In this document: positions 40,354 through 64,000 of the stretch, piece after piece
How positions within the stretch are numbered: position 1 is the first letter of the stretch
How the letters are laid out: each line of letters opens with the position of its first letter
Assembly: GCA_964558645.1 (NCBI GenBank)
Contig: CAZLEV010000003.1
Span: 32,001-96,000, forward strand
DNA from: an uncultured archaeon
GTDB taxonomy: Archaea; Asgardarchaeota; Thorarchaeia; Thorarchaeales; Thorarchaeaceae
DNA: 64,000 nucleotides
Direction: 5' to 3'
The notes under the pieces: generated by a model
Seen by the model: only the letters and a program-made list of their open reading frames with translations
Told to the model about the DNA's origin: nothing
Databases searched by the model: none
Made by a program: the position numbers and the translations under genes

Positions 40354-41574
40354 ATGGACAAGCCGATATTCGGGAGTAGAATATCTTTGAAATTCAATGA
40401 ATATCCAAGAGAATTTTTTCTTTTGGTCATCTCAACATTGGCAATCTTTCTTGCATACAACATCACTCTACCAATTCTGCCTCTTCATCTCTTGCTTCTA
40501 GGCGCAGGGTCTCTTGAGATTGGGGCTATCATGGGAACTCTATCATTTGTCCTTACCTTCACCAAGCTACCATCAGGAATCCTTGCACAAAGATCCACGA
40601 TGCAGAGGGCCCTTGCCTTTTCGGCAACTGGGCAAGCTATAACTCAGATTCTCTACTCCGTATGTACTGCTTCGAACTGCTTCATATTTGCTCAGATTTT
40701 TCATGCAATAACCTTAGCCCCGTTGGTGTCTGTGGGTATCGCATCTTCTCAGAAGATGGCGCCGGACGGTAGAAGGGGAGAAGCAATGGGTTTCTATTTG
40801 TGTGCCTACGGAATAGCGGCAACAGTCGGTCCAGTCATCTGTTCACTGTTGCTCCTTTGGATGAATTATGCACAGATATTCCTCATTTCCTCTGCTATAC
40901 CTTTACTGGGTGTTCTTCCATTTCTGTTCGTGAAGGGGTCTGTTCACTTGGGTATTGATGAAACAGGCTCTGAACGGAACGTGATTAAAGAGCTAGGCCT
41001 ACTAGTACGCTCTAGGAATGTGAATCTCGTTAGTTTTCTTCGTTTTCTCTATGCTACAACTTTCGGGTTTTTTGGTGCATTCTTCGTAATACACGCAGAG
41101 GTAAATCTTCTATTTCTTCCATCTGCGATAACGCTTATGCTTGCCGCGATGGGCGCAGCCGATTTAATTGCTCGGTTTCCTCTGGGGCGCATGCTTGACA
41201 GGATTGACTACAGGTGGGCCCTTGTGGGTTCGTATGCAATACTTGGGTTCCTCTACTATGTGCTATCAGAGATTCAAGCTCCCTTTGAGCTGACAGCTAT
41301 CCTCTTTCTGACTGGACTGGCAACAGGTGTAAGGGTCACCTCAGAATGGGTAATGCTGGCAGATAACTCTCCCGAGGGTGCCCGCTCGATGACGTCTGGC
41401 TATATGTCAACAATAGACAATATCGGCAGAGGGTTCGGTGCCACGCTCGGTGGATATATCGTGATGGCCTCCTCGATATCTCTAGGCTTCAAGCTAGCGG
41501 GAGCAATAATGTTTGTAGCCGCACTAGTATCTACGCAAGTAGGCGGTTCAGTCGATCCTGCCGTCCGTGAATAG
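40354..41574 (+). CDS. MFS transporter
   Basis: ~12 TM helices, KLPSGIL and GRMLDRID loop motifs, RRGEAMG. Confidence 0.92.
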   Translation: MDKPIFGSRISLKFNEYPREFFLLVISTLAIFLAYNITLPILPLHLLLLGAGSLEIGAIMGTLSFVLTFTKLPSGILAQRSTMQRALAFSATGQAITQILYSVCTASNCFIFAQIFHAITLAPLVSVGIASSQKMAPDGRRGEAMGFYLCAYGIAATVGPVICSLLLLWMNYAQIFLISSAIPLLGVLPFLFVKGSVHLGIDETGSERNVIKELGLLVRSRNVNLVSFLRFLYATTFGFFGAFFVIHAEVNLLFLPSAITLMLAAMGAADLIARFPLGRMLDRIDYRWALVGSYAILGFLYYVLSEIQAPFELTAILFLTGLATGVRVTSEWVMLADNSPEGARSMTSGYMSTIDNIGRGFGATLGGYIVMASSISLGFKLAGAIMFVAALVSTQVGGSVDPAVRE

Positions 41575-41669
41575 TCCGGCTGGTGACCCCAGTGATCTTT
41601 CCCGCTCGGTAGAGCGGAGGAATACTTGCTGCTGCTATTCAGCATCTGTTTGAAAACTGTTTACGAAGC

Positions 41670-41714
41670 AAAAAAAATTGGGGGATGTGAAGGTCTACCC
41701 ATCCTTCACATCCC
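41670..41714 (-). terminator. Intrinsic-type terminator of the PLP/CysK/M24/cupin operon
   Basis: Perfect 12-bp stem gggatgtgaagg / ccttcacatccc followed on the minus strand by a T8 tract. Confidence 0.75.
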
Positions 41715-41774
41715 GAGGAGGTCGTTTTCGACTCTTGGAGGTATAGGAGGTCTCAGAGTCAGAGTCCGTGGTTG

Positions 41775-42176
41775 TTAGGGGTATTTCCCCTTCTTCAAGA
41801 TTGTAACCATTCTGCCCGTACCTTTGATTACTCTTTGAGAATGAGGTATTTCCTTCGGAATGAATACCGTCACGGGAGCGGTCACAATGTATTTTTCGTC
41901 TTCGAGCGTAATTTCAGCCTGTAGAGGACTATCATTTCCCGGTTCATCGAGGAATATGAAGACCTGATCCACATCATGAGTATGCAGTTCCACATAGTCC
42001 GGCATGTCCTCGGGAACATTATCTATGTGGCGTGTTGTGACTCTGATTCCGGCGCCTTCATAGTGAATGTCATCAAGCAACACATAGGACTGCCCTGTCT
42101 TGTTCATGACAGAGCTATCATGATGTTTAATCTCCTCGCTAGGCCGAGGTTTTAGAATGGTATTCTCGTACTTCAT
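41775..42176 (-). CDS. Cupin-fold metalloprotein
   Basis: HTHDVDQVFIF and VFIPKEIPHS motifs. Confidence 0.85.
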   Translation of the reverse strand: MKYENTILKPRPSEEIKHHDSSVMNKTGQSYVLLDDIHYEGAGIRVTTRHIDNVPEDMPDYVELHTHDVDQVFIFLDEPGNDSPLQAEITLEDEKYIVTAPVTVFIPKEIPHSQRVIKGTGRMVTILKKGKYP

Positions 42177-42188: not shown

Positions 42189-43346
42189 TTACAGTTCTAG
42201 TCCACGATGGAGATTTGGTGTGAATATCTCATGGCCGTCTGAAGTAACATGAACAACATCCTCAACGTTGAATCCAGCAACTCCAGTCCAATAATACGGG
42301 ACTTCTATAGAGAGTACCATGTTCTCTTCGAGTTCGATGTGATTGTTGGGGTTGACCAGAGGCTCTTCCTCCGTGATGAGACCGAGACCGTGACCAAGAT
42401 GAGACCTCTCAAATTCAGGATAACCCATCTCTCGGACTGTTTCGATTCCGGTCTTGAAGAGGTCTGAGAACTTGACGCCTGGCTCTATCATATCGACAAT
42501 GCGCCTCTCTGCCTCAGCGAGAGCGCTGTATACTTTCACAATCTTCTCGGATGGTTCTCCCAGCACACGACAGCGAGCGAAATCACAGCGGTATCCATAG
42601 TATATAGCCCCACCGTCGAATCTCATGACATCACCTTTCTTTAACTTGTGGTCGAGAGGCCATCCGCGTCTAACCGTTGCAGACTCTTTGCCGATAGTTA
42701 GATTCTGATGAATTAGACCCTTGTGCATGAATCCTCCCTGTTTGGTGATTTCGAGCTGAAATGCCCCTAAGAAATCTGCTTCTGTCGCACCTTCCTTCGC
42801 AACTGCGAATGCAGCTTCGAATCCTTTCTCAGAGATTTCGCAGGCTCTCTTTATCCTGTCGACTTCTTCCTTGATTTTGACTGCTCTGATGTCTAGGAAG
42901 GTCTTGGAGGCATCGTGGAACTTCACGTCCGGAAGTTTGTCCACAATCTTTCTGAAGTCAACAATAGGCAAGGTCTTCTCCTCAATCCCGATAGTTGCCT
43001 TGGTGAGCCCTTTCTCTTTAAGAACATCTTCGAGTGCTACCACAGTGTTGTCGTAGACATCTATCTCATCCTCATTTTCCCTTTTGAAGTACGCCCAAGT
43101 CTTGGTGAATCTCTGGTCCTTGATGGGAGAAACGACTTTGGCGAGGTCTGCGTCCAAGGCAGTAACGCACAAGACTGGATCTCCATCAAGAGGAATCAGA
43201 ACGAACTGTCCAAAACCGCTCGAGAAACCCCTGAAGCGGTCTATGAACGGAATGTATAGATCTCCTGCGTAGAAGAAGTTCTCGGGAGAGGAAGCAAGGA
43301 GAGCATCCAGCTTCCGCTCCTTCATTATTTTCTTTGCTCTCTTCAT
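42189..43346 (-). CDS. M24 (Xaa-Pro peptidase/creatinase-like) hydrolase
   Basis: LDALLASSPEN; metal ligands D..GYRCD, GHGLG, SIE, VED present. Confidence 0.92.
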   Translation of the reverse strand: MKRAKKIMKERKLDALLASSPENFFYAGDLYIPFIDRFRGFSSGFGQFVLIPLDGDPVLCVTALDADLAKVVSPIKDQRFTKTWAYFKRENEDEIDVYDNTVVALEDVLKEKGLTKATIGIEEKTLPIVDFRKIVDKLPDVKFHDASKTFLDIRAVKIKEEVDRIKRACEISEKGFEAAFAVAKEGATEADFLGAFQLEITKQGGFMHKGLIHQNLTIGKESATVRRGWPLDHKLKKGDVMRFDGGAIYYGYRCDFARCRVLGEPSEKIVKVYSALAEAERRIVDMIEPGVKFSDLFKTGIETVREMGYPEFERSHLGHGLGLITEEEPLVNPNNHIELEENMVLSIEVPYYWTGVAGFNVEDVVHVTSDGHEIFTPNLHRGLEL

Positions 43347-43400: not shown

Positions 43401-44471
43401 CTAGACAACGTACTTATCGTTTGGATACTCATCCATGTACCTATCACGTCGATCGACAATGACCGTGACGACATTCTGGCCTTCGTCCAGATTCTCAGCA
43501 ACTTTCAGGGCTGCATGCACGTTTGCGCCAGAAGACATACCACAGTAGATACCCTCTTCCTTGCACAGCCTGTTGGCCATGTTCCTAGCATCGTCCTGAG
43601 TCACACCGAACCATTCATCTGGATACCCTCTCTTGTACATCTTCTCTACAATCGAGTCTTCTGTTACCCATTTCTCAAGTCCGAGCATCTCACATATCTT
43701 CATTCGGAGTGGTGGCCGTCCCATTGTTGTGCTATCCATGATGTCCGTACTGATATCTACCAGGCTGGTTCCTTCGTCAGGAACCACTCCAAAGGTATAC
43801 GGTTCAACACCATGATTCTTCAGTGCTGTTGCCACTCCCAAAAACGTGGCACCTGATCCCACCGATGCGCCCCATGCATCAATCTTACCCTCTAGTTGAG
43901 TGTGAATCTCTTCACCCATGGGGATCTGCCCTTCCCAGTTCGCATCATTGTAGATCTGGTCAACCCAGACGACATCAGGGTTGTCACGTTCCATCTCATA
44001 CATGTGGTACTTTCCGGCGATTATGACAGCGAACCTGCGTTCTTTGTCGGTTTCGAAGGCATCTAATACCTCATCGCACGGCAGTGGGCAGGGATAGTGA
44101 TTCGCACCGAAGGCAGAGCTGATTTTGAGTCTAGCGCTCATATTCTTGTCTCCGGAGTGTAGGAAATGAGCATAGGTGCAGAGTTTGATTTTGTAGCCCT
44201 TCATGGCACAGACAAAAGCCAGGGCTGGAGCTGTGTTTCCAGCGGATGCATCACAGACCGTCCCGCCCGGCTCGAGTTTCTTTCCGTTCCAGGTATCGCC
44301 CCTCTCTGCAGCTTCGATCATGGAGAGTGCCATTCTGTCCTTGTAGCTCCCACTGGGGTTGAGGTGTTCGAGTTTCACGAATACGTTTGCGGGAACATCC
44401 TTGCCGACTCTGTTTAGCTTAAGCAGAGGGGTATTCCCTATCACTTCTAGCATGCTTTCCTTATAGTCCAT
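43401..44471 (-). CDS. Cysteine synthase-like PLP enzyme (fold type II), divergent
   Basis: IGNTPL, KLEHLNPSGSYKDR, SAGNT, GSGAT, GMSSGAN; start ATG 44471 after GGTGA RBS. Confidence 0.9.
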   Translation of the reverse strand: MDYKESMLEVIGNTPLLKLNRVGKDVPANVFVKLEHLNPSGSYKDRMALSMIEAAERGDTWNGKKLEPGGTVCDASAGNTAPALAFVCAMKGYKIKLCTYAHFLHSGDKNMSARLKISSAFGANHYPCPLPCDEVLDAFETDKERRFAVIIAGKYHMYEMERDNPDVVWVDQIYNDANWEGQIPMGEEIHTQLEGKIDAWGASVGSGATFLGVATALKNHGVEPYTFGVVPDEGTSLVDISTDIMDSTTMGRPPLRMKICEMLGLEKWVTEDSIVEKMYKRGYPDEWFGVTQDDARNMANRLCKEEGIYCGMSSGANVHAALKVAENLDEGQNVVTVIVDRRDRYMDEYPNDKYVV

Positions 44472-44503
44472 TTTTGTGGTCACCTTCTCAGGTTATTGTT
44501 CAC

Positions 44504-45967
44504 CTACTTCTCTATCTCGCTAGCCCACTTCGCAATGGTTTCAAGCGTCTTCACGAGTCCCCTTACACAGAGCTCAACAACATCTGGAATCAGTTTACCT
44601 TCCGAATCTAGGTTGCCTTGGCCCATGACCAAGAACAGATTTCCGTCATAGCATAGTGGAGGTCGGATCCCTAGCTGCGGGGTTCCTTTCTGTATCAGAT
44701 TGCTGGCTGCGTACATGTCCTCTATACTGAATATTGGCATTCCCCACTTGTCTCCCTTCCAAGTGTCGGCGTAGTTGATTTCTACAGCCATTCCGTTTAC
44801 AGTAGGAGTTATCCTCCAGCCATTCTGCTGTATGAGATCAGATTCAGAGGTCGTGGCTTTGATGATCTTGTGCATGGTTGCAACATTTTCTCTCATCATG
44901 TCTTCTTTCGCGAGAAGGTTTTCAAGCGCAACGACAACTCCAGCCAGTGCCTCCTTCCCGGGGTCCGCCATAACATGTGCCGCTTTTCCATACGAGGATG
45001 CTGTGCCTTCACGTGCTCCATGAACTCCCATTGCCTTGCGTACAGGGACCATAACGTCTTCCTTTCCGAGAATAAGGCCGCACGTGGGACCTCCTGCTGC
45101 TTTGTCCATGCTGTACATCATTATGTCTGCGCCGTTCTGCCTGGGATCAATTCCTAAGAATGGAGTTCCTCTTGCGTTGTCGCAGATGTAGGGTACATCA
45201 TACTTGTTTGCGAGGCCACCGATGAGTTTCTGAAGCTTTGGTGTTCCATCCTTGTCCTTAATGTCGTATCCGTAACCAATCGTGTCATAGCCAAGTGACG
45301 TGAATGCTGCAAGCCTGTCAATATGCCTCTCCGCAACGGTCTGCATCCTTTCAGCTGACGCCTCAGGGTCAACTTCTGTGAGTATTGGTACAGGATGGTA
45401 CTTGATACCGTGAGCAGGGTAACGAGCTCCTTCGAGAGGGACAATAAGGGTATCGAGATTGGACAACCTCTTTCCCGAGAGTCCGAGCTCTCCTGATGTG
45501 ACTCCTCGGTCACTGAAGAGTTCTTTGTACTTGGGTGGAAACGGACGGCCATATCCTCCCTGATGATGCAAGTGTCTCTCGTAGGGCGCAATATATGCTG
45601 ACCTATAGGCGTCACCTCTGCCTAGAGTGGGTGGCGTTACAAGAGCCTCAAATGATACCCAAAGAGCCGCTTCGGCTGTACTCACTACAGTGGCATCATA
45701 GTCGTCCCCATATACATCCTTGACCATATCACGCACTCTATCGATATAGGTGACAAGCGAGATTACTTCCTTGCTGGCGTTATGCATCGCATCGAGAATA
45801 TTATCAGCGATGGTGGGTGGTGTTCCAGATCCCCCACCCATACCGATTCTACCATACTTATCCTTTGGAACCTTGACCTCGTCTGACTGTGCCTTTATAT
45901 CAGACATGATTTCCGACTTGTGTTTTTCAAGATACTGATACATCCTGAACTTATTATTATCTGACAT
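44504..45967 (-). CDS. Uncharacterised fold-type I PLP enzyme, SelA/DgaE-like
   Basis: VPYICDNA, GADIMMYSMDK..GGPTCGLILGK resemble SelA-family GADLVxFSGDK..GGP..GII.GK. Confidence 0.7.
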   Translation of the reverse strand: MSDNNKFRMYQYLEKHKSEIMSDIKAQSDEVKVPKDKYGRIGMGGGSGTPPTIADNILDAMHNASKEVISLVTYIDRVRDMVKDVYGDDYDATVVSTAEAALWVSFEALVTPPTLGRGDAYRSAYIAPYERHLHHQGGYGRPFPPKYKELFSDRGVTSGELGLSGKRLSNLDTLIVPLEGARYPAHGIKYHPVPILTEVDPEASAERMQTVAERHIDRLAAFTSLGYDTIGYGYDIKDKDGTPKLQKLIGGLANKYDVPYICDNARGTPFLGIDPRQNGADIMMYSMDKAAGGPTCGLILGKEDVMVPVRKAMGVHGAREGTASSYGKAAHVMADPGKEALAGVVVALENLLAKEDMMRENVATMHKIIKATTSESDLIQQNGWRITPTVNGMAVEINYADTWKGDKWGMPIFSIEDMYAASNLIQKGTPQLGIRPPLCYDGNLFLVMGQGNLDSEGKLIPDVVELCVRGLVKTLETIAKWASEIEK

Positions 45968-46319: not shown

Positions 46320-47528
46320 ATGATGAGTGAGAAAGGCTATCCATCAGAGTTCTATGTCCTGATCGCTACCTCAGTAACAGTCTTCCTTGCTGTTGAAACA
46401 ACCCGTCCGATTCTCCCGTTGCACGTCACGGCGATTGGAGCATCTCCTGTTGAGCTGGGCCTCATCATAGGATTGCTCTCGTTTGGATTGATGATTGCGA
46501 AGATTCCACTGGGTGCGTTTTCGGAAGCAGTTCCTGCTAAGAATATATTGGGTATAGCGGCAGTGGGCCAGAGCGTAGTTCAATGGATGTATTCGATCGC
46601 ATCGACTACAGAGGCCTTCTACGCTATACAGATCATTCATGCCATCATCATCGCACCGGTGGTACCTGTTGCAGTGGCTGTATCTCAGAATCTTGCTCCT
46701 CGCGGCCGCGAGAGTGAAACCATGGGGGCATTCTTAACATCATACGGAATCGCTTCGATGGCCGGCAGTTTCCTTTGTTCATTTCTTCTCACCATAATGG
46801 ACTATGCTCAGATATTCCAAGTGGCAGCGATTGTCCCTCTATTAGGCCTAGTACTTTTGATCATCGCCCGAAACGGCGAGTACTTGAGGGAGCCAACAGG
46901 TGGAGAAGAGCGTCCGGGTCTTGCTTCTTCTATGACTAATATACTGAGGTCGAGAGATATGCTGTTGCTCTCTTATCTCCGTCTAGCCTACGCGATCACC
47001 TATGCATTCTTCATTACCTTCTTCATCATCTACGCAGAGAACTCTCTCCTGATTCCAGCTGCTCTCGTAGCGTTGCTCTTTGGTGTGAGGAGTGCAACAG
47101 ATATGGCGGTGAGACTTCCGGTTGGGAAGATGTTGAACAAGACAGACTACAAGTGGTGTATTGTTGTAGCGTTTCTGTCACTCTCCGCAATATACTACCT
47201 TATCTCTGAGATGACGGATTACATAGTGTTGGCAGTGTTGATGGCCGTGTTTGGTATAATGATCGGCCTCCGCGTTGTTTCCGAATACACCATGCTTGCT
47301 GAGCATTCGGAGCCGGGGGCTAGGAGTGTGTCAGCAGCCTACTTATCTACAATGTTCAATATTGGTTCAGGGTTTGGATCTGTAGCTGCAGGAATTCTAG
47401 CAACCATTCTTGGTATTCCATCCATCTTCAAGATAGCAGCAGTATTGATGGTCACAGCCGCGATTGCAGCTCTTGCAATCACTAGTGATGCTAAGCAAGC
47501 AGATGTTCTCCACCCAGGATCGAACTAA
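46320..47528 (+). CDS. MFS transporter (paralog of 40354-41574)
   Basis: ~12 TM helices; shared motifs YP.EF..L, PILPLH, Q..AP.GR..E.MG, YAQIF, AY.ST..NIG.GFG. Confidence 0.92.
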   Translation: MMSEKGYPSEFYVLIATSVTVFLAVETTRPILPLHVTAIGASPVELGLIIGLLSFGLMIAKIPLGAFSEAVPAKNILGIAAVGQSVVQWMYSIASTTEAFYAIQIIHAIIIAPVVPVAVAVSQNLAPRGRESETMGAFLTSYGIASMAGSFLCSFLLTIMDYAQIFQVAAIVPLLGLVLLIIARNGEYLREPTGGEERPGLASSMTNILRSRDMLLLSYLRLAYAITYAFFITFFIIYAENSLLIPAALVALLFGVRSATDMAVRLPVGKMLNKTDYKWCIVVAFLSLSAIYYLISEMTDYIVLAVLMAVFGIMIGLRVVSEYTMLAEHSEPGARSVSAAYLSTMFNIGSGFGSVAAGILATILGIPSIFKIAAVLMVTAAIAALAITSDAKQADVLHPGSN

Positions 47529-47596: not shown

Positions 47597-49027
47597 ATGA
47601 CATTATTGGAAGAAATTCATGCGTATATCGATAGTCACAGCGATGTTCATCTTGAGGGCTTGCAGGATTTTGTCAAGCATCCAAGTATTTCAGTTGAGGG
47701 TCGCGGTACACGCGAGTGTGCCCGGTTTATCAATCAGTGGATGGTTGAAATCGGGTTTCAGATGGTTGAGCTCTACACCCCCGAAGGGAATCCAACTATA
47801 TACGGTGAATATTCCTCCTCGGCTAATCCGGATAAGACACTCTTGCTATATGGCGCATACGATAGCAATCCTGTGGAAGAGGAAAAATGGCATTCTCCTC
47901 CATTCAGCGGCGAAATCGTTGAGAAGCCGGGGTTGGGTAAGTGTTTGGTCGCCAGAGGTGTCAATAACAAGATGAAAGTGACAGGCATCCTAAATGCGAT
48001 TTCTAGTATTCAAAGTGTTTCCGAGGATCTTCCTGTAAACATCATTGTCGTTATCGATGGTGAAGAAGAGATGTTCAGTCCGAATCTTCCATCTTTTGTT
48101 TCAGAATACGCCGAGCATCTGAAGGCTGCAGATGCTCTTTACATGCCCTTCTCTTCTCAGAATTCTAAGGGCGTAGCTAGGGTTCAACTTGGCTATAAGG
48201 GAGTTTCATATCTTGAGTTGAGCTGTTCACACGAAACGTGGCATAGAGGCCCGAGTGATGAGATTCATAGTATGCACAGAGCCGCGGTTGACAATCCTGT
48301 GTGGTATCTGATCCACGCACTGGCATCCATGACAACCAAGAACGGCAACGAAGTTGTAGTCAATGGATTCGGTGATGCTATTGCTCCTCCTGAGCCGGGT
48401 TTTGTGAAGCTTGTAGAGAGTCTAGCTGAAGACTTCGATGTCAGCTCCTACAAAGAAGGGCTGGGAGTAGATCATCTCATGGATGATGAAGAAGAGCCGT
48501 TGGATGTGCTCAAGAAACTCTTCTTCACGTCACAAATCAACATAGACGGGATTTGGGGCGGCTACATTGGAGAAGGCGCAGAGGCGGTTGTTCCGCCAGA
48601 AGCAAGGGCCAAGCTTGACATCCGACTTATTCCTGAACAGAAACCTGTTAGGGTCCGCAGGCTAATCGAGAATCACCTTACATTACACGGCTTCAATGGA
48701 ATCACTATTGATGAATTGGCGGCAGTTGAGACTTGTCGAACCTCAGTAGATGATGAAATCGCAAGGTCTCTGATTCAGGCCTACGATAGCATCGGGGTTC
48801 ATGCTCAGGTATGGCCCAGCTCATTGGCCACGATTCCCATCTATGTCTTCAACCAGCCCCCGTTGAGCCTGCCGTTTGCCACTGGCTGTGTCGGCTTCGG
48901 TGGTCACACTCACGGAAGCAATGAGTATTTCGTTGTTGAAGGGAACGGCGACATTCAGGGGTTGGCGGGTTACGAGAAACTCATTGCGTCTGTTATCTGC
49001 CATTTTGGGCAATGTAATAGGACATAG
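47597..49027 (+). CDS. M20 family metallo-hydrolase (dipeptidase/deacylase) with variant ligands
   Basis: PSISVE, LLYGAYD, W.SPPF, ARG, GEEE, KLDIRLIPEQ, HGSNEY. Confidence 0.88.
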   Translation: MTLLEEIHAYIDSHSDVHLEGLQDFVKHPSISVEGRGTRECARFINQWMVEIGFQMVELYTPEGNPTIYGEYSSSANPDKTLLLYGAYDSNPVEEEKWHSPPFSGEIVEKPGLGKCLVARGVNNKMKVTGILNAISSIQSVSEDLPVNIIVVIDGEEEMFSPNLPSFVSEYAEHLKAADALYMPFSSQNSKGVARVQLGYKGVSYLELSCSHETWHRGPSDEIHSMHRAAVDNPVWYLIHALASMTTKNGNEVVVNGFGDAIAPPEPGFVKLVESLAEDFDVSSYKEGLGVDHLMDDEEEPLDVLKKLFFTSQINIDGIWGGYIGEGAEAVVPPEARAKLDIRLIPEQKPVRVRRLIENHLTLHGFNGITIDELAAVETCRTSVDDEIARSLIQAYDSIGVHAQVWPSSLATIPIYVFNQPPLSLPFATGCVGFGGHTHGSNEYFVVEGNGDIQGLAGYEKLIASVICHFGQCNRT

Positions 49028-53905: not shown

Positions 53906-54584
53906 TAATGATGCATATCGCTACTGAATTCAAAGGAGTTATTTGAACTGCTCATGTGGATGTGCCGATAATCTGCAGATACAGGCTTTCTATGGTCTTG
54001 TCTTGAACCTCATTACGATTCGCCCGTTCATCTAAACTCCCTTCTGTTTGGAGAGCAACATGCAAAGGGTCACTGCCATCATTCCATCATTGAGAGTATG
54101 CCTGCCGAAACAAGCATCGATTAGCGAGTCAAACACCGCGATGAAGGTAAGGCATGGGGGGTTCATCCCCCACTCTGCGAAGAGCAAAGATTGGTTTTGT
54201 CTTTGCGATAGGTACCTCTACCTTCAGTAATAGTTCCCTCTTTCCCTCTGATTAGGGGAATGCCTGCTGTTGCAGCCAACGAGAGTACACACGCTGTAAT
54301 GAACCTTCCCAGCGATCTTGGCTCTAAGATTGCTGTTCTGATAGTGATTACAACTGCGCTCTCATGAGCCGTGGTTGGGGGTCAGCGATGCAGTTTCGCA
54401 CTCTAGCGACTAGATCTAGGGGTTTTGTGTACTCCAGTTAGAGACCAGATCTGTACCCACATTCCTAGTTCTCAGGTTTCTGTCGACCTCAGTGTAATGG
54501 ACTGCTGGGACTACGCTCATGAGTCAAGGCAGACCATCGGCCCTATTCAGAGATTACACGACCGATTCACAAGGCATCGGGTTA

Positions 54585-55749: not shown

Positions 55750-56832
55750 TCAGTTCCATATGCTCACTTCTTGATATTGGTTTATGCATGGGGGTCCATG
55801 AGAAATCATCATCCTTACATTCGTCAGGTCAATGATCATGGACGCATTTGTCTGCATCTGGCGCAGGCTGGGAAGCTTCTCATCAGGATGGCGACAGACC
55901 GAGTGCGGTTTGCTGAAGTGATCCGTGAAAACTCTCTTGAAACTCTCGATTGATAAAGAGCCTACTTCCGATGAAAGAATCTTGTCCGCGCGATGTTTTC
56001 TGATTAGAGTGTCAGGCGATTTGAGTACCTTGTTATCTGTTACCTTTGGGTTGTTGGCTGTAAAGTGATTCGTATGGGTCAGAAAACCCGTTGAAGGAAA
56101 GATGAAGTCTGCAGTCTTTGGAGTGGCTTCAATGTCAACGCATTCGCCATCGACATGTGTGACGAGGTAGTTATGGGATGAACACCTGGGGACGGCAGTT
56201 ACAGCCTTTATTGCGTCGACAAAATTACTGCTAGAGAGTATTCCTCGTTTGATGAAGAGGTGCGGGATTCCTTCCATTGACCAACCACTGGAAAGCAGGG
56301 AATTCGCACAGAGGCCGATACCTGCTGAATTAATCCCATTGCCGCCGATTGTTCCGGCCTCAGTGAACTGGAAAATGTCTGGACCCTCTTTCTGTTTTAT
56401 CCTAAGAAGAATGTGGGTCTGCTGAAACAACTCGCTCCAATCGTCGTTCTGACCGATGAGTGTGGTTCTTTCCTCTGTGCACTCCGGAAGTGCAGCAATC
56501 GTTGTGCAACCACTCCATACGCCATCTACCTTCAGACTGAAAAACTCGTAGACGGAATTCAGAAAGAGAATGACATCAAAGGTTGTATTCGCGCCTTCAG
56601 AGATTCCCTCCATTTCCTCTATCATTCTGGCGTCATATCTCTCTACGTGTTTTTGACATTCTTCTGCCTTCCGGACTGCCTTCTCCCAAGAGAGGCCGAA
56701 ATAGTCCTCCGAGTCGATAAGGGACCGAAGAATCTCTACTCTCTTGGCAATAAGCTTTGCGCACTTTGAACCATATTCGTGTCCCCGCTCGTACGGAGCT
56801 CCTTGGATGCTGATTTGTGGAAATTTGTTCAT
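55750..56832 (-). CDS. C45 family Ntn-hydrolase
   Basis: GAPYERGHEYG, GCTT, GQNDDW, TEAG, GINSAGI, HTNHF, SVCRH; start ATG 56832. Confidence 0.92.
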   Translation of the reverse strand: MNKFPQISIQGAPYERGHEYGSKCAKLIAKRVEILRSLIDSEDYFGLSWEKAVRKAEECQKHVERYDARMIEEMEGISEGANTTFDVILFLNSVYEFFSLKVDGVWSGCTTIAALPECTEERTTLIGQNDDWSELFQQTHILLRIKQKEGPDIFQFTEAGTIGGNGINSAGIGLCANSLLSSGWSMEGIPHLFIKRGILSSSNFVDAIKAVTAVPRCSSHNYLVTHVDGECVDIEATPKTADFIFPSTGFLTHTNHFTANNPKVTDNKVLKSPDTLIRKHRADKILSSEVGSLSIESFKRVFTDHFSKPHSVCRHPDEKLPSLRQMQTNASMIIDLTNVRMMISHGPPCINQYQEVSIWN

Positions 56833-56845
56833 TCGACCTTGACTC

Positions 56846-57349
56846 CTATTGGCCGTGTGTCCTGCTTGTCTGGTCAGACGCGTTGTGTCCAAATGTTATT
56901 TCATCATCAAGACCAATCTCCAAGGTTGCTGTTGTCCTATCTAATGTTGTCTTCATGATGCGTTTGAGGTTCTCTGATTCAGCATAGACCAAAATGTTGA
57001 GATGATTTGGCTCGTGAATGTCGCTGAAACCGACAACCCTCCCAATTCGCATGTCGCTGATGTGTACATCTTCACCCACCACAATGATGCCTCCTGAAGT
57101 GACTTCGAAGAAACCTAAATACAGGACAGATTCCACTACATCACCTGGCGAAACACCATCCTGATCGGTAGCTGTAATCTCTACGACGGTGTATCTTGGG
57201 AACGACCTGCTTCGCGGGAACATGAGATTTGTCCCCCTTTTCAGTAGCCTTAGGCCTGAAACCGCGACCATCTTCCCAAGGACAGCTCTCTTCTTTGAAC
57301 TCGCCCAATGGTCTGGTATCTTCTCACTTTGATATGGTTCATCTGTCAT
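56846..57349 (-). CDS. DUF6917-like small beta-barrel protein
   Basis: LGFFEV..GGII.VG.DV, IGRVVGF..HEPNHLNI. Confidence 0.65.
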   Translation of the reverse strand: MTDEPYQSEKIPDHWASSKKRAVLGKMVAVSGLRLLKRGTNLMFPRSRSFPRYTVVEITATDQDGVSPGDVVESVLYLGFFEVTSGGIIVVGEDVHISDMRIGRVVGFSDIHEPNHLNILVYAESENLKRIMKTTLDRTTATLEIGLDDEITFGHNASDQTSRTHGQ

Positions 57350-57560: not shown

Positions 57561-58859
57561 TTAAGAGATGGGGTTGAAGATTTTCTCAAGAATATCAGTA
57601 GCCTTGTCAATATCCGCTTCTGTGGTAATCAGGGGCGGACAAAGACGAAGGGTGTTGTGATATACTCCGCCTGGAAACATAAGGAGTCCGTTCTTTGCTG
57701 AAGCCTCAATTATCGCTGCTGTTTCTTCCGGTGCCGGTTCATTAGTATTCGTTTCTTTGACCAGTTCTATTCCGAGCAGCAATCCGCATCCCCTAATCTG
57801 TCCGACAAGTGGATGCTCCCCGAGGATGTCATGGAGTCTTCTTCGAAGGTACTTCCCTGTTCTTGCGCATTGCTCAAGCAGGCTCTTTTCTTCAATTAGT
57901 GAGATAGTTGCAAGTGCAGCTGCACACGCAACAGGATTTCCTGAGAAAGTCCCTCCACCTCTGAAATGGGTCATGATATCCTTTCGCCCTATCACCGCCC
58001 CTAATGATAGCCCAGACGCCAAAGGTTTCGCCATATAGAGGAGATCAACTTCGACCTCCCAATTCTGAACGCCAAACCATTTTCCCGTCCTACCCATCCC
58101 AGTGACAACTTCATCAACTGCAATTAGGATTCCATATTCGTCACATAGTCTTCGCAGACCTTTCATGTATCCTTCGGGTAGAGGGACAACCCCTCCGTGT
58201 ACTTGTACGGGCTCTATGAAGAACACTGCTGTTTCGTCAGGGGGTATAACCTCGGTTTCAAGCTGATAACGGATGAATTCGAGGCATTCAAGTCTGCATG
58301 ATTCAGCTTCCCTGCTGAAGGGGCACCTGAAGCAGTATGGATATGGCACGTATAGAATGCCTGGCACTTGAGGGACACCGTACTTTCTGCCGTCAGGGCT
58401 TGTATTCAGTGCAAGTGCCCCCATAGAGGTCTGACCGTGAAAGCAACCGAAAGTACAGACCGCCATAGGTCTTCCAGAGTACTGTCTTGCTAATCTTAGA
58501 GAGAGTTCAGTAGCCTGAGAACCTGTGTTGCAGAATCCCACCATTCCCGACGACAACTCTTTTGGGGCTATTCTTTTGAGGGTCTCTGCAAGCACAACTC
58601 TCTGTTCGTTCATTACCCAGCCAAGTGATGTCAATCCTGTATGTTCTAGTTGCGTCATCACAGCTGACATGACTTCTGGAGGACAGTGGCCAAGATTGGC
58701 TGTCTGTCCCCCCGATGTGAAGTCGAGGTAGGAACGCCCCTGAATATCTTTCAGATGGATACCTTCCGCTTGAGTAATGAGCATGGAGGGGAATCTGTAG
58801 TTACGTGCGCATGATTCTGCGTTTCTTTCTATCCATGTGTTTTCCATTTCTTGTTTCAT
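57561..58859 (-). CDS. Class III PLP aminotransferase (GABA/ornithine/racemase-like)
   Basis: YLDFTSG, LGH, FHG, EPVQ, DEVVTGMGRTG, MAK, GTFSGNP. Confidence 0.93.
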   Translation of the reverse strand: MKQEMENTWIERNAESCARNYRFPSMLITQAEGIHLKDIQGRSYLDFTSGGQTANLGHCPPEVMSAVMTQLEHTGLTSLGWVMNEQRVVLAETLKRIAPKELSSGMVGFCNTGSQATELSLRLARQYSGRPMAVCTFGCFHGQTSMGALALNTSPDGRKYGVPQVPGILYVPYPYCFRCPFSREAESCRLECLEFIRYQLETEVIPPDETAVFFIEPVQVHGGVVPLPEGYMKGLRRLCDEYGILIAVDEVVTGMGRTGKWFGVQNWEVEVDLLYMAKPLASGLSLGAVIGRKDIMTHFRGGGTFSGNPVACAAALATISLIEEKSLLEQCARTGKYLRRRLHDILGEHPLVGQIRGCGLLLGIELVKETNTNEPAPEETAAIIEASAKNGLLMFPGGVYHNTLRLCPPLITTEADIDKATDILEKIFNPIS

Positions 58860-58966: not shown

Positions 58967-60586
58967 CTACGCGAAGTAGGCTCTGTGGTAATTGACATCC
59001 CACTGAAGCCCACCGAACCAGATACCTTGCAAGGAGGCGTCTCCGAACTGGAAGAGCTTAGGCCTGTAGAGGAAGATATTCGGAACCCATTCTGCCCAGA
59101 GTTCCTGAAGTTCGGTGACAAGCTCAATGAACTCGGTTTCGTTTGTTGTTCCTGCAGCTTGGGCGATGAGATCATCTATCGCAGGATAGAGGGGACCCAT
59201 GTCGCCTTCTGTGACTTTGCATCTGCCAGTTCCGTATCCATAGGAGGACATGAATGGAACGTTCCAGTTGTCTGCTGCTGGATAGTCTGCTCTCCACCGC
59301 CACAAGGTCATCTCCTGATTGTCAGTATTCCTGTACTGGTCTCTGAAGACACCAATTTCTTGAGTTTCGATTGTCACATCGAAGCCCGCGGCTAGGGCGT
59401 ATTCCTTAATGACCTGAAGCATATCGGCCTCCCGCGATGTGTAGCTACCCGAAGTGTAGATTGTCATCTCAATAGGAGTTTCGTATCCTGCGTCATCAAT
59501 GAGTTGGAGAGCCGTTGCCGGTTCATAGTCATAGGGGGAGACTTCAGCATACCCTGCGTACTCCGCGGGTAAGTAGCTGTAGAGCCTGTCTGCTTCGCCC
59601 TCGTAGACGGTATCAATGATAACGTCGTAGTTTATGGCGTAAGCAAAGGCCTGTCGCAGTAGCTTGTTGTTTGGGAATGTGTCGTGGACTGTGGTGTTAA
59701 AGTTGAATTGCAGCCAACGTGCAGAAGAAGCTGTGCTTATGTCGTAGCTCTGCAAGTCAGGATTTTCCAGAAGACTTGGATAGTCGTCTTCATTGAGTAC
59801 TCCTAGGCTAAGATCGACAGTTCCACGCTCAAGTGCCAGCTTAAGTGTAGAGGCATCTGGAATCACGATGTACTCAAGGGTCTGAATGCGATGGGTTTCA
59901 CCGGGAACTGCGTTCCACCAGTCAAGATGCGCATCGAGTATTGCTTCTTGATCTGTAACATAACTGGTGAGCTGGTATGGACCAGTACCGATATACTCGC
60001 CTTCATAGATTTCTAGTCCTGCGTCCCGTGCGGCCTCTGATGCAGTTGGACTGGGAATCTTACCCGGGACGGCGGCCAGCATGTATCTAAAAGCAACGTT
60101 TGGATAATTGAGAACAAATCGCACGGTGTAGGTATCAACAATCTCTGTCCTGTTAAGGAGAGCTTGATGGAACATGTATGTTATACCTTGCTGGATCTCA
60201 AACATGGAATCGAAGTGATCCTTGACAGCTGTTGCGTTGAAATCTGTCCCGTCCTGGAACTTGACGCCTTGTCGAAGAGAGAACGTCCATGTCAGACCAT
60301 CTTCGGAAACCTCGCCCATATCTGCCGCAAGAACAGGTTCAAGCTCGAAGATTTCTCCGTATTCATAACCAAACAGACCCTCGTAGATCTGCCTGATAAG
60401 ATCATTGTCTCCTCCTCTCGCTGTCTGAGGATGAAGGTTTCTTCCTATTTCTACTGGAGCCCCAAGAACCAAGGTAGTCCTGTCCTCAGCAGTTGTGGGA
60501 GTCAGTTGCCAAAGGTAAAGCAGACCTGCACTTTGGATTATAACTATAATCACCAGGACTGTAATTACCATCTTCTCTTTTTTCAA
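58967..60586 (-). CDS. ABC transporter substrate-binding protein, family 5 (peptide/opine/nickel), N-terminally anchored
   Basis: IYEGL, P.LA..., WTFSLRQGVKFQDGT.FNA.AV, GTGPY, LRQAFAYAIN. Confidence 0.94.
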   Translation of the reverse strand: MKKEKMVITVLVIIVIIQSAGLLYLWQLTPTTAEDRTTLVLGAPVEIGRNLHPQTARGGDNDLIRQIYEGLFGYEYGEIFELEPVLAADMGEVSEDGLTWTFSLRQGVKFQDGTDFNATAVKDHFDSMFEIQQGITYMFHQALLNRTEIVDTYTVRFVLNYPNVAFRYMLAAVPGKIPSPTASEAARDAGLEIYEGEYIGTGPYQLTSYVTDQEAILDAHLDWWNAVPGETHRIQTLEYIVIPDASTLKLALERGTVDLSLGVLNEDDYPSLLENPDLQSYDISTASSARWLQFNFNTTVHDTFPNNKLLRQAFAYAINYDVIIDTVYEGEADRLYSYLPAEYAGYAEVSPYDYEPATALQLIDDAGYETPIEMTIYTSGSYTSREADMLQVIKEYALAAGFDVTIETQEIGVFRDQYRNTDNQEMTLWRWRADYPAADNWNVPFMSSYGYGTGRCKVTEGDMGPLYPAIDDLIAQAAGTTNETEFIELVTELQELWAEWVPNIFLYRPKLFQFGDASLQGIWFGGLQWDVNYHRAYFA

Positions 60587-60720: not shown

Positions 60721-61848
60721 CTATAGGCGATATTTGGCATATTTGCCTTTACACGGGTTTCCGTCTGAGATCCAGAACTCCTTTCGACTCGGCAATGAGA
60801 TCATATTGGATAATGTGTGATGTGTTTCTCCGTGTCGGCAAATGGAGTTGTTTCCTTCAGGTGGTTGGTCACCGTACTTATGATCTGACATAATAGTCTG
60901 AACTCCATTAAGGTCTATGTGGCCATACTTTTCCCATCCGAGTTCTACTAACCTTTCATATCTTTTGAAAGTCGACATATAGTCTTCGACGCTTCTGGGC
61001 CCGAAATTCCTCATCTCCGGATTGTGATAGTGGTTTGTTGAAACAACGAAGTGGTTCCTCGTCTGTATAGTCATTATTCTCTTGGTTGAGAATGATATTC
61101 TTGCCATGTTTCCTTCACTGTCCACGACATCGACATTCTCTCCTGCGTGTGAGTAGTATGGTATTCTTCTCACCAGTTGAACGAATTCATCAACGCTACT
61201 ACATCTCTCGAGCCCAATTCTCGTTATTATCAGAGGCGGAAAACCGAAATCAGCATCTCTGAATTGAACAATGCCAGAACCCACGAATGCTAATCCCTTT
61301 TCATTAAATCCAATTACGGAGTTTCGACCAAGATTACCGGCTAGTCCTCTTCCAATGAAACGATATCGACCTTCGGGACTAATATGAAAGACTTGAGCTA
61401 GGCCTTTTCCATGCATCGTAAGGGGCCAATCCGAGTTCTGTGTTGCAATAGGCATTTCGTCAGCTGTTGCATCTCCAGCTGCCACAAAGGAAGAGCAATC
61501 GGAATCACCTGTCGCGGTAGGCGTTGAATCGACAGATGCACCTTTGGTGTGGCTCACAGTATCTCTGACCTCCCAGAAGAACAGAAGCATCAGTGCAGTC
61601 TCATAATCCAATTCGGCTCCTTCAGCAAGCCCTCTGGCCTCGTCAATGACTTCTGGAAACTCTGATCCGATGAGATCTTCATATCTCTTGGTTATTTTTC
61701 TGATGCCTTCATTTGAGAGGGCAAGTTCCTTCATTTCTGTTTCCACAAAGGGAATCACGTTGTTCGAAATGATACTTTGCAGTTGAGTTCCATGCTGCAC
61801 GCCTATTTCGTAATGGCTACCTGTAAATCGGTGCATTTTCTGTGTCAT
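60721..61848 (-). CDS. C45 family Ntn-hydrolase (close paralog of 54585-55670)
   Basis: GSHYEIG.QHG, DCSSF, QNSDW, GRGLAGNLGR, STNHY, SICRH. Confidence 0.9.
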   Translation of the reverse strand: MTQKMHRFTGSHYEIGVQHGTQLQSIISNNVIPFVETEMKELALSNEGIRKITKRYEDLIGSEFPEVIDEARGLAEGAELDYETALMLLFFWEVRDTVSHTKGASVDSTPTATGDSDCSSFVAAGDATADEMPIATQNSDWPLTMHGKGLAQVFHISPEGRYRFIGRGLAGNLGRNSVIGFNEKGLAFVGSGIVQFRDADFGFPPLIITRIGLERCSSVDEFVQLVRRIPYYSHAGENVDVVDSEGNMARISFSTKRIMTIQTRNHFVVSTNHYHNPEMRNFGPRSVEDYMSTFKRYERLVELGWEKYGHIDLNGVQTIMSDHKYGDQPPEGNNSICRHGETHHTLSNMISLPSRKEFWISDGNPCKGKYAKYRL

Positions 61849-62254
61849 ATTATATCGACTCTGGAATAAAGGAGCATTCCCGCAATAAATAGGTTACTTC
61901 TTCTGTTATATTGAGGATAAAACTCGATTATCAGACTTCAGCTGCAGCGCTTCTGTGTCCGGCATACAAGGTGCTGCTATATTCCTTTCTCAATTCTTCT
62001 TCAATGCTACAGGTAGTCGCCTCTTTAGTCAAGTACAGTCACGGCGTATCTGAGTTCTGAGAAGACGTGAAACAAATCGGACACAACACCGAGACTTGTT
62101 GTGGGACGGGATTCTAGTAGCGAGGGAGCATTAGAGCACCAAGGTTTCTCTTTTTGAGAATAGTCTCCCCGGGCGCACCTGGGTTAAAGCGCGTGAGCCA
62201 TTTCCGGCTACGACGATTTCCTGCAACCGGAACAGAAGGTTTGCAGCAGTTGAG

Positions 62255-63283
62255 TCAACTCTCTTCAATCCAGTTGCCGACCCCATGGCAAGCAACCCTC
62301 CTTCCTCCGAACTCCCTAAGCTGTGGTTCATCTGTCCTGCAGATGTCCTTAGAATATATACATCGTGTACTAAATCTACATCCAGGTGGTAAATCGACTG
62401 CGCTAGGCATCTCATCTTCAGATGGGAGCGATTGGAGGTGATGCTTGGTTCTAGGGTCGAGCGTAGCCAGTGCTGACTTGAGGAGCATGGTATATGGGTG
62501 ATACGGTTCTTCCAAGACATCCTTGCTTGGTCCTTCTTCTGCTATCCGTCCGAGATACATAATGCCAATCGTCTTGCACATGTACTGGGCGCTAGCCAAA
62601 TCGTGCGTTATGAGCAACATGGTGAGATCATGCTCATCCTTCAGTTGTCGAAGGAGGTTGAGTATTCCAGCTCTGACTGATAAATCCAACATGGAAACAG
62701 GCTCATCTGCCACTATGAATTTGGGGTTCAGCGCAAGTGCCCTTGCAATACTGAGTCTCTGCCGTTGCCCGCCACTAATCTGATTGGGATGTTTGCTGAG
62801 GAAGACTTCCGGAGGCACTAATCCAACATCTTCAAGGAGCTTGTAGACTCTTTCGTCCTTTTCTTCTTTGCACTCGCATATCTTATGGATTCGAAACGGC
62901 TCAGTGAGTATCTCGTCGGCCGTCAGCCTGACGGGCAGACTTGAGAATGGATCCTGATAGATAATCTGCATCTCGCGACGAAATGGTTTCATCTTCTTTC
63001 TTCCAAGATGGGAGATGTCATGACCCATGAATTGTAGAGATCCGTCGGTGGGTTCTAATAGCCGAATCAGAAGCTTTCCGAGTGTAGTCTTTCCACAGCC
63101 ACTCTCTCCTACTATGCCATACGTGGTCCCATCTTCAATCACGATGTCAACTCCATCGACGGCCTTGACATATGCGTTTGGGGCTCTGGATATGATTGCG
63201 CCGAGTCCCTTGCTTAGAGGGAACCATTTCTTCAAGTTCTGAGTCTGGATTATAGCTCGTTTGGCTTCATCTCTGCCTGACAT
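62255..63283 (-). CDS. Oligopeptide ABC transporter ATP-binding protein (OppF/DppF-like)
   Basis: GESGCGKTT, ISGGQRQR, ADEP, HPYT, GCRF..RC; start ATG 63283 just after the upstream stop. Confidence 0.94.
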   Translation of the reverse strand: MSGRDEAKRAIIQTQNLKKWFPLSKGLGAIISRAPNAYVKAVDGVDIVIEDGTTYGIVGESGCGKTTLGKLLIRLLEPTDGSLQFMGHDISHLGRKKMKPFRREMQIIYQDPFSSLPVRLTADEILTEPFRIHKICECKEEKDERVYKLLEDVGLVPPEVFLSKHPNQISGGQRQRLSIARALALNPKFIVADEPVSMLDLSVRAGILNLLRQLKDEHDLTMLLITHDLASAQYMCKTIGIMYLGRIAEEGPSKDVLEEPYHPYTMLLKSALATLDPRTKHHLQSLPSEDEMPSAVDLPPGCRFSTRCIYSKDICRTDEPQLREFGGRRVACHGVGNWIEES

Positions 63284-63287
63284 TGAA

Positions 63288-64000
63288 TCATACCTCTCTC
63301 CAGTTATGGCATTCAATATAGGATCTCTTGCGTCCTTCGATAGGCTCTCCGATTGGCTTGACATTTCTGCATATCTCAGTCATATACGGACATCTGGGAT
63401 GGAAGGGACATCCGCTTGGTGGACTCAGCAAATTCGGGGGAGTGCCTGGTATTACAGTCAGTTCCTTATCCAGCTGGTCTATAGTGGGAAACGATCCGAG
63501 GAGTCCCATTGTATATGGGTGCTTGGGCTCTAGAATCAAATCCTCTGCATATCCCGTTTCCATGATTCTGCCCGCGTACATAATCGCAATGCGTTCACAC
63601 ACCTCTGACAGGACAGCAAGGTCATGAGTGATCCACATCACTGAAAGACCCAGTTTCACCTTCAGATCGTGAATCATCTTCAGAATCGAATGCTGAACGA
63701 CAACATCCAAAGCCGTAGTAGGCTCGTCCAAGAACAAGACCTTTGGATCTGATATCAATGACATCGCAATGAGGACTCTTTGTTTCATTCCGCCTGAGAA
63801 CTCGTGAGGGTAGTTACTTATTCTAGATGGGTCAATCCCCACCATTTCTAGAAGTTTTCTTGCCTTGTCGAGTGCATCCCCTTTATTGAAATCGTCGTAT
63901 CTGGTTAGAGGTTCAATCATCTGGTCGGAAATCCTGAACATGGGATTGAGGGCATGCATCGATTGCTGCAAAACCAGTGCAAGGTCATTCCATCTGTATT
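63288..64000 (-). CDS. Oligopeptide ABC transporter ATP-binding protein (OppD/DppD-like), 5'-truncated by window edge
   Basis: YPHEFSGGMKQR, DEPTTALD, HPYT, GCPFHPRC. Confidence 0.94.
   Translation of the reverse strand, partial: YRWNDLALVLQQSMHALNPMFRISDQMIEPLTRYDDFNKGDALDKARKLLEMVGIDPSRISNYPHEFSGGMKQRVLIAMSLISDPKVLFLDEPTTALDVVVQHSILKMIHDLKVKLGLSVMWITHDLAVLSEVCERIAIMYAGRIMETGYAEDLILEPKHPYTMGLLGSFPTIDQLDKELTVIPGTPPNLLSPPSGCPFHPRCPYMTEICRNVKPIGEPIEGRKRSYIECHNWREV

Follow-up and report, generated by a model that had tools for sequence, protein, structure and literature searches.

Gene Content and Layout of the Locus

The window analyzed here is a stretch of 64,000 nucleotides from an uncultured archaeon of the Thorarchaeaceae (G000:C3:32001-96000, in a 3.6-Mb assembly of 37 contigs); close relatives in the databases, by their names, likewise assign it to the Thorarchaeota (Asgard). 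It contains most of a block of about 25 genes that encodes a peptide-type ATP-binding cassette (ABC) importer, a series of amide-bond hydrolase homologues, and several pyridoxal phosphate (PLP) enzymes. Genes were assigned from six-frame open reading frames (ORFs) and from scans against Pfam and NCBIfam. The block spans the region from approximately 37829 to approximately 4.9 kb beyond the window end, and the corresponding island in Asgard archaea measures about 28-31 kb. A preceding sequence-only reading of the window had delimited the block as 40354-64000. Its gene list holds: the family-5 importer, two transporters of the major facilitator superfamily (MFS), three C45 hydrolases, the M14, M19, M20, and M24 homologues, and the PrpD-like, TIGR04076, and DUF6917 proteins are all recovered by Pfam and NCBIfam. 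The three PLP enzymes of different types (a CysK-like PALP enzyme, a class III aminotransferase, and a SelA/DgaE-like enzyme) are likewise present, and no housekeeping gene interrupts the block. Its borders were less accurate, the right one being cut by the window and the left one being soft.

The block is composed of several transcription units. The first MFS gene (MFS1) stands alone on the plus strand. A minus-strand operon comprises genes for the SelA/DgaE-like PLP enzyme, the CysK-like PLP enzyme, the M24 hydrolase, and a 133-aa cupin-like protein. The plus-strand operon that follows contains MFS2, the M20 homologue, an AstE/AspA-type M14 protein, a 289-aa protein, the TIGR04076 protein, the first PrpD-like protein (PrpD1), and the M19 homologue. 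It converges on a long minus-strand operon that starts beyond the window and encodes OppB, OppC, OppD, OppF, C45c, the binding protein, the class III PLP enzyme, DUF6917, C45b, and C45a; the 680-base gap between the two ends (53906-54584) holds no ORF of at least 90 aa. Farther out, again on the plus strand, lie an aspartate-dehydrogenase-like (AspDH-like) gene (L004:3748-4551) and a second PrpD-like gene, PrpD2 (L004:4598-5935).

Conservation and Distribution of the Island

The DNA around orthologues of the SelA-like gene in related genomes was searched with all 26 block proteins. The whole set occurs together in one genome of the same genus (G001), in four other genera (G003, G013, G016, and G375), and in another family (G105 and G106), and fragments of it are found in G002, G347, and G392. 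The sequence-only reading had named gene co-occurrence in other genomes as the check on its cluster, and the outcome is positive: the genes form a block in 10 Asgard genomes from two families and were not found in most relatives. A constant core of approximately 21 genes is shared across the two families at 45-97% protein identity. Around this core, the sub-operons are inverted or reordered between genera, and copy numbers vary for the C45, MFS, class V PLP, and 347-aa protein genes.

The distribution of the island is patchy. Orthologues of the SelA-like protein with at least 59% identity are present in 10 of 400 Asgard genomes. Among the 86 genomes of the window's own family, three markers (the M19 variant, C45, and the SelA-like enzyme) were all found in 7 and none of them in 77, so that the pattern is all-or-none in 84 of the 86. 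Both mixed cases stem from the assemblies: the G002 contig ends inside the island, and G392 has a 4.3-kb contig with M19 and a fragment of PrpD1. No C45 gene of any kind was detected outside the island carriers. In the source genome itself, almost every block member is single-copy, and this block is the sole location of the C45, M19, M14, PrpD-like, SelA-like, DUF6917, and TIGR04076 families. The genes that flank the island are syntenic within the genus only. The GC content of the block is slightly low (47.6% against 49.6%, the 3rd percentile) and its tetranucleotide usage is ordinary, leaving a recent foreign origin unsupported. Because the marker pattern is patchy, the flanks are shared only within the genus, and the tetranucleotide usage is ordinary, we regard the block as a long-resident accessory island that has been repeatedly gained or lost. 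It is a conserved accessory island, and neither a chance cluster, nor a scattered set, nor part of the core genome. No description of it was found in the literature searched.

A block of this composition could also be seen as a loose aggregation of genes for general scavenging of peptides and amino acids, with no dedicated substrate. Sediment Asgard archaea are generally thought to ferment peptides, and such an aggregation would suit the shuffling of sub-operons between genera, the variable number of C45, MFS, and class V PLP genes, and the quite different gene contexts in which bacterial relatives of single members occur. It does not agree with the retention of some 21 genes together across two families, with the all-or-none markers, whose two exceptions are fragmented assemblies, with the absence of the families involved from the rest of the source genome, or with an M19 variant specific to the island clade (see below). 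We therefore consider this explanation improbable.

The Importer and the MFS Carriers

The family-5 ABC importer set is complete. It consists of a binding protein, two ATPases with ABC_tran and oligo_HPY domains, and the OppC and OppB permeases, which carry BPD_transp_1 and are encoded just past the window. The binding protein (58967-60586, SBP_bac_5 249 bits) has an N-terminal membrane anchor. The OppF-type ATPase gene occupies 62255-63364, and the OppD-type gene (63288-64000) is cut by the window end; in the sequence beyond the window, OppD, OppC, and OppB are located at 288-1256, 1260-2177, and 2217-3224 of L004, respectively. The nearest named relatives of the binding protein are NikA, GsiB, DppA, and CntA, all far under the cut-off (NCBIfam scores of 148 bits for NikA, 133 bits for GsiB, and 103 bits for CntA). 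It belongs with the small-ligand Nik/Gsi/Dpp/Cnt proteins, and none of these matches is diagnostic. The Dpp, Gsi, and Nik importers of Escherichia coli (DppABCDF, GsiABCD, and NikABCDE) have the same architecture, with one family-5 binding protein, two permeases, and two oligo_HPY ATPases. The island differs from them in two respects: its binding protein stays under every equivalog cut-off, and a C45 gene sits between the binding-protein gene and the permease and ATPase genes.

The two MFS carriers are paralogs with 39% identity. MFS2 (46320-47528, MFS_1 123.4 bits) is a core member found in all island copies. MFS1 (40354-41574, MFS_1 123.6 bits) is an extra copy, and its close orthologues are confined to G001 and G002, both from the same genus.

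Hydrolases and Their Active Sites

Five of the seven hydrolase homologues retain their catalytic residues. The M24 prolidase-type hydrolase (42189-43346, Peptidase_M24 138.9 bits, with a Creatinase_N domain) keeps all of the metal ligands D, D, H, E, and E when aligned with aminopeptidase P (2ZSG). In the AstE/AspA-type M14 deacylase (49223-50206, AstE_AspA_cat 81 bits), the zinc-site HxxE, H, and E are intact in the alignment. The three C45 proteins are C45a (54585-55670, C45_proenzyme 188 bits), C45b (55750-56892, C45_proenzyme 232 bits), a lineage-specific extra copy, and C45c (60721-61848, AAT 67.7 bits), which is 54% identical to C45a. Model scores are well above the thresholds (NF040521 188 and 232 bits against a cut-off of 85; Pfam AAT 68-71 bits against 23). 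The nucleophile Cys at the self-cleavage site is kept in all three paralogs; in C45a it is the Cys of PQCSSF, which is aligned to Cys103 in isopenicillin N acyltransferase (2X1D). By family match and nucleophile, they are predicted to be canonical autoproteolytic Ntn-hydrolases/acyltransferases. The longest ORF of C45b begins at a TTG and overlaps the DUF6917 gene by 47 bases; since its orthologues align only from residue 21-24 on, translation probably begins at the ATG near 56832.

The M24 and M14 proteins raise the possibility that the island serves the breakdown of ectoine-like or N-acetyl-diamino-acid solutes. Here, the M24 enzyme would act as a ring hydrolase, the AstE-type enzyme as a deacetylase, the class III PLP enzyme as a transaminase, and another PLP enzyme as a dehydratase, similar to the Doe and Eut pathways. 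DoeB is the best named match of the M14 protein (101.2 bits; PDB 6TWL, 2.7e-19), the M24 protein has Creatinase_N and a weak match to DoeA, DABA transaminase is one of the many families matched by the class III enzyme, and one island-bearing metagenome-assembled genome (MAG) is from salt-lake sediment, by isolate name only. The ectoine and hydroxyectoine clusters of Halomonas and Ruegeria (DoeA/B/C/D and EutA/B/C) indeed resemble the island in combining a creatinase-N M24 enzyme, an AstE/AspA deacylase, class III and fold-type II PLP enzymes, and an importer of their own. However, all models remain far under their cut-offs (DoeA 71.7 against 613, DoeB 101.2 against 402.7, DABA transaminase 243.8 against 671, and EutB 34 against 413), the M24 protein is nearer to prolidases (1e-33) than to DoeA (1.5e-9), and the block has no aspartate-semialdehyde dehydrogenase. 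The island importer is a peptide-type ABC system instead of a TRAP or Ehu system, and it is left unexplained by such a pathway, as are the C45 genes; the C45, M19, M20, PrpD-like, SelA-like, DUF6917, and TIGR04076 genes have no counterpart in the Doe and Eut clusters. Accordingly, we see only a slight chance for this substrate class.

The two remaining hydrolase homologues deviate at metal-binding positions. The M20 homologue (47597-49027; M20_dimer PF07687 44.4 bits and Peptidase_M20 PF01546 31.8 bits; 6.5e-50 to Sso-CP2) has YGAYDS and RGVNNK in place of the HYD and DNK of Sso-CP2, and thus lacks the metal-site His and the bridging Asp. In all its orthologues the His is replaced by Ala or Ser and the Asp by Asn, so that the complete two-metal ligand set is missing. 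The same loss is common to 119 of the 119 nearest homologues, from Asgard archaea, Bathyarchaeia, Nitrososphaerota, and some bacteria (P0392-P0510), and because it is shared by all of them, the deviation is best read as an old subfamily trait and not as island-specific rewiring.

The situation in the M19 homologue (52844-53905, Peptidase_M19 PF01244 278.9 bits against a cut-off of 26) is different. Aligned to Sco3058 (3ID7) and human DPEP1, it has three of the five zinc ligands replaced, Glu125 by Gln, His198 by Gln, and His219 by Asn (human numbering). His20, Asp22, and the late Asp are kept, and the set needed for a two-zinc site is not. These substitutions are invariant in orthologues, save that His198 is retained in a few. 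Among 120 homologues, 37 variant and 84 canonical sequences were counted; the variants include all homologues with at least 56% identity, and the next relatives beyond them carry the canonical HDEHHD. More distant variants with Q/H/N also exist (P0155-P0157). The alignments indicate substitutions specific to the island clade, in contrast to the subfamily-wide changes in M20. Invariance of the substitutions in orthologues at 53-90% identity argues that both genes are under selection.

Precedent for a functional, non-hydrolytic M19 fold is provided by PvdM, which acts in pyoverdine maturation (PMC9305348). As in the island M19, the two-zinc site of PvdM is lost; its fold and peptide-binding pocket are retained, and its gene is conserved and functional (PMC9305348). 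The details are different. Of the five ligands, PvdM has His219 alone, and a hydrophobic residue occupies the bridging position in its relatives, whereas the island M19 keeps His20 and Asp22 and has the polar Q/Q/N set; moreover, the island protein is cytoplasmic and unrelated to siderophore genes. The sequence-only reading had spoken of repeatedly rewired active sites. This is borne out for M19 (E to Q, H to Q, and H to N) and M20 (H to A and D to N), and mildly for the CysK-like enzyme, but not for M24, M14, and the three C45 proteins. With two of seven hydrolases deviating, the phrase is an overstatement.

The RpiA-Fold, TIGR04076, PrpD-Like, and Cupin-Like Proteins

The 289-aa protein (50225-51094) has no Pfam family, and its ESM Atlas matches are to unnamed clusters only. 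The RpiA fold previously ascribed to it agrees with its predicted structure (pLDDT 95), for which Foldseek retrieves RpiA at E 7e-4 and VIA gives Z of 8-9 to eIF2B and ribose-1,5-bisphosphate isomerase; an RpiA/eIF2B-like fold is thus predicted. The protein ends in a conserved C-terminal Cys/His cluster, and its family comprises 665 cluster representatives. Metagenome relatives with 46-54% identity (L117-L192, e.g., L133:8001-8816) are encoded in modules with Asp/Glu/hydantoin racemase, S-Me-THD-like (DUF917), DUF1177, AroM, M29-like, and OPT transporter genes, sometimes also with PrpD-like genes, and two family representatives are fused to AroM (P0244 and P0266). Such racemase/DUF917/DUF1177/AroM/OPT modules occur in bacteria and archaea. 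The island differs from them in having no DUF917, DUF1177, AroM, or hydantoin-racemase gene, and its 289-aa gene is always followed by the TIGR04076 and PrpD1 genes.

The small TIGR04076 protein (51142-51462, 50.3 bits against a cut-off of 33) is, in all island copies, encoded between the 289-aa protein and PrpD1. In the literature searched, the family appears in annotation tables only.

PrpD1 (51481-52836) matches MmgE_PrpD_N at 183 bits and MmgE_PrpD_C at 112 bits. Its PDB matches are cis-aconitate decarboxylase (1.8e-33), IDS epimerase (4e-28), and 2-methylcitrate dehydratase (3e-5), which place it by similarity on the cis-aconitate decarboxylase/IDS-epimerase branch. An assignment as 2-methylcitrate dehydratase PrpD was rejected, since its score with TIGR02330 (32.7 bits) is far under the cut-off of 458, and membership extends to the MmgE/PrpD superfamily only.

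The relationship of PrpD1 to IDS epimerase is one of the points that could suggest a metal-chelating aminopolycarboxylate or opine-type metallophore, made by the CysK-like enzyme as a C-N synthase and the PrpD-like epimerase, exported by an MFS carrier, and re-imported by a Nik/Cnt-like system. The NikA and CntA scores of the binding protein fit this scheme, DtxR and FeoAB genes follow the block in the source genome, and one may speculate that the degenerate metal sites of M19 and M20 would fit substrates that carry a metal. On the other hand, the block contains no nicotianamine-synthase-like, opine-dehydrogenase, or ligase gene, and seven hydrolases suit synthesis poorly. The DtxR and FeoAB genes lie outside the block, and a link to iron or other metals through them was rejected, as these flanks are common to the genus only. 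Since the iron genes are neighbors only in this genus and genes for synthesis are missing, a metallophore is very improbable.

The 133-aa protein (41775-42176), encoded by the last gene of the SelA-like operon, adjoins M24 in every island copy. The sequence-only reading called it a cupin; the Cupin_2 match (E 0.097) has no statistical support, and the resemblance comes down to an HxH motif.

PLP Enzymes and DUF6917

The SelA/DgaE-like fold-type I enzyme (44504-45967), with its lysine in an SMDK motif, belongs to an unnamed family. It has no Pfam match above cut-off and is far under the models for DgaE (TIGR01437, 44.4 against 385.3) and for TIGR00474 (21.4 against 267.9); only approximately 60-120 residues around the PLP lysine align with SelA and DgaE. 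Mean column identity in its family is 65% across Asgard archaea and bacteria, and homologues with 50-53% identity are present in 263 bacterial species. In a quick tree, the island sequences group in a single clade (SH-aLRT 100) nested within the bacterial radiation, and the gene appears to have been acquired once from bacteria. A second paralog, 41% identical, lies outside the bacterial radiation in this tree. It was observed in ten genomes of another Asgard genus, away from island genes (L105-L107, e.g., G102:C1:1212977-1214425 and G110:C27:67028-68470); two of the ten also carry the island.

The DUF6917 protein (56846-57349, PF21891 105.7 bits against a cut-off of 27) is modeled as an all-beta barrel (pLDDT 89.5). 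It has no clear structural relatives in Foldseek (best E 0.21) or VIA (best Z 4.2, to generic barrels of the translation-factor type), and no mention of DUF6917 was found in the literature searched. Among the island genes, a bacterial counterpart exists only for the SelA-like and DUF6917 genes, as a pair seen in many anaerobes: in 65 of 80 bacterial loci examined, the DUF6917 gene occurs with the SelA-like gene. The bacterial operon, seen in Bacillota, Thermotogota, Atribacterota, Sumerlaeota, and others (L033-L104, e.g., L058:9053-17427), encodes a GntR/FCD regulator, DUF6917, RidA, the SelA-like PLP enzyme, a GidA-like flavoprotein, a 460-aa membrane protein, a KamB-like reactivase, an 80-aa protein, and a 606-aa B12-binding protein. 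The presence of RidA as a partner there points to elimination chemistry via an enamine. Although both proteins are shared, with the SelA-like enzymes 50-53% identical, in the island the two genes are 11 kb apart in different operons, and the block lacks RidA, the GidA-like flavoprotein, and the B12- and KamB-like genes. Conversely, the bacterial pair occurs without the island hydrolases, save loosely in one MAG (L098).

The class III PLP enzyme (57561-58859, Aminotran_3 327 bits) has its best PDB matches with Ala/Ser racemase (1.7e-79) and Ile 2-epimerase (1.7e-73), and a broad-specificity racemase is also matched. It is thus closest to racemase and epimerase members of the class, although sequence alone cannot separate a racemase from a transaminase. 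If it is a racemase, the island could serve peptides with D-amino acids or unusual linkages, for example, peptidoglycan stem-peptide fragments from dead sediment bacteria. Gamma or N-acyl linkages would then be hydrolyzed by the deacylases and C45 enzymes. M19 enzymes have a preference for L-Xaa-D-Xaa dipeptides, as in Sco3058, the binding protein belongs to the group of di/tripeptide-sized Dpp/Gsi/Nik proteins, and the relatives of the 289-aa protein next to racemase and AroM genes, or fused to AroM, point the same way. Yet the island M19 has lost its beta-metal site, the racemase assignment carries the ambiguity just noted, and the block has no MpaA, LdcA, DdpX, or D-Ala-D-Ala-type enzyme, its M14 protein being AstE/DoeB-like with an MpaA match of E 2.8e-4. 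On balance, a substrate of this kind is unlikely.

The CysK/CBS-like fold-type II enzyme (43401-44483, PALP 198 bits) is under all NCBIfam cut-offs and is the most conserved island protein (75-97% identity). It keeps the PLP lysine and has the loops SAGNTA and GSGAT, with modest loop changes and insertions. The fourth PLP enzyme is a class V (SufS-like) protein encoded at the left edge on the minus strand (37829-39076, Aminotran_5 126.9 bits; 108 bits to the SufS subfamily in NCBIfam, under the cut-off of the model). It is a variable member, whose gene adjoins the block in G001, G002, G003, and G013.

Three of the four PLP enzymes thus resemble enzymes of sulfur or selenium amino acids, which could indicate a thiol peptide or S-conjugate similar to glutathione, with GsiB-like import, cleavage of the Cys-Gly type by the M19 and M20 homologues, and C-S chemistry by the CysK-, SufS-, and SelA-like enzymes. 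Among the solved relatives of the binding protein, GsiB (YliB) and the glutathione-binding protein HbpA take ranks two to four; Dug1 and CNDP2 are among the relatives of M20, and GliJ is among those of M19. But all these similarities are far under the family cut-offs, NikA outscores GsiB for the binding protein, and no gamma-glutamyltransferase, ChaC, or oxoprolinase is encoded in the block. The PrpD-like, AspDH-like, and C45 genes would also be left unexplained, and we give this substrate little chance. None of the three substrate classes (D-peptide, thiol-peptide, and ectoine-like) reaches its membership threshold.

Uptake and Breakdown as the Probable Role of the Island

Taken as a whole, the island encodes seven amide-bond hydrolase homologues, five of them intact (three C45, M24, and M14), four PLP enzymes, an AspDH-like enzyme, and two proteins of the cis-aconitate decarboxylase/IDS-epimerase branch. 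Pfam and NCBIfam reveal no ligase, ATP-grasp, nonribosomal peptide synthetase, methyltransferase, or other synthetase gene among the block genes. Because genes of these synthetic types are missing, catabolism is favored over synthesis; together with the complete importer, the seven hydrolase homologues, and the four PLP enzymes, this favors uptake followed by breakdown. We therefore propose, with a probability of roughly 0.6, that the block is a conserved Asgard accessory island for importing and breaking down one or several small peptide-like or N-acylated amino-acid compounds. The sequence-only reading had proposed a dedicated system for importing and dismantling, or making, an unusual compound. 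Import by a complete family-5 ABC system and the co-occurrence of the block agree with it, and catabolism is the favored direction; the genes may or may not all serve a single pathway.

A plausible scheme is as follows. The importer would bring the compound into the cell, where the C45, M24, and M14 enzymes would hydrolyze its amide linkages. The variants of M19 and M20 may act with a single metal or none, or may do no more than bind the substrate. A released amino acid would be inverted or transaminated by the class III PLP enzyme, and the SelA-like (with DUF6917) and CysK-like enzymes would remove or exchange a beta or gamma substituent. Finally, the AspDH-like and PrpD-like proteins could pass a dicarboxylate product to central metabolism.

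Several observations weigh against this proposal. No block member reaches the equivalog cut-off of any characterized enzyme. Catalytic activity may be lacking in the M19 and M20 variants, and the MFS carriers could be exporters. As the sub-operons are rearranged between genera, several smaller pathways could share the island. The incompleteness of MAGs limits claims of absence, "not found" being not equal to "absent". The SelA-like tree was rooted at the midpoint or on paralogs, with a support of 91 at the open fork.

A bolder version of the uptake-and-breakdown proposal would make the island one complete, undescribed pathway for a specific metabolite of anoxic sediments, put together in Asgard archaea from parts of archaeal and bacterial origin and involving new chemistry: an M19 enzyme without a two-zinc center, a SelA-like/DUF6917 lyase, and an RpiA-fold Cys/His protein working with TIGR04076 and the cis-aconitate decarboxylase/IDS-epimerase-like protein. 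We regard this as possible but doubtful.

Most Asgard archaea have not been cultured, and what they consume in sediments is deduced from their genomes. An island of 20-plus genes, present or missing in its entirety, marks a specific nutritional trait by which otherwise similar lineages differ. At least six uncharacterized proteins are also brought together in one testable context, namely, the SelA-like, DUF6917, TIGR04076, and 289-aa proteins, the M19 with Q/Q/N, and the M20 with its reduced ligand set. As some of these families are common among anaerobic bacteria, identifying the ligand of a single binding protein could assign functions to many families.

Variable Members and Flanking Genes

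To the left of the block lies a TFIIB gene (36539-37498), and the genes for the class V PLP enzyme and a 347-aa protein are located between it and MFS1. The 347-aa protein (39114-40157, plus strand) is a variable member that has no Pfam or NCBIfam match; its orthologues adjoin the block in G001, G002, G013, and G375, and it is possibly a regulator. Upstream of the block, a pair of PmbA/TldD metallopeptidase genes (window positions 30343-33212) is syntenic within the same genus only. Past the other end of the island (L004:6004-11259), a DtxR-family repressor, a split FeoB, and a LarA-like lactate-racemase homologue are encoded; they are neighbors of the island within the genus only.

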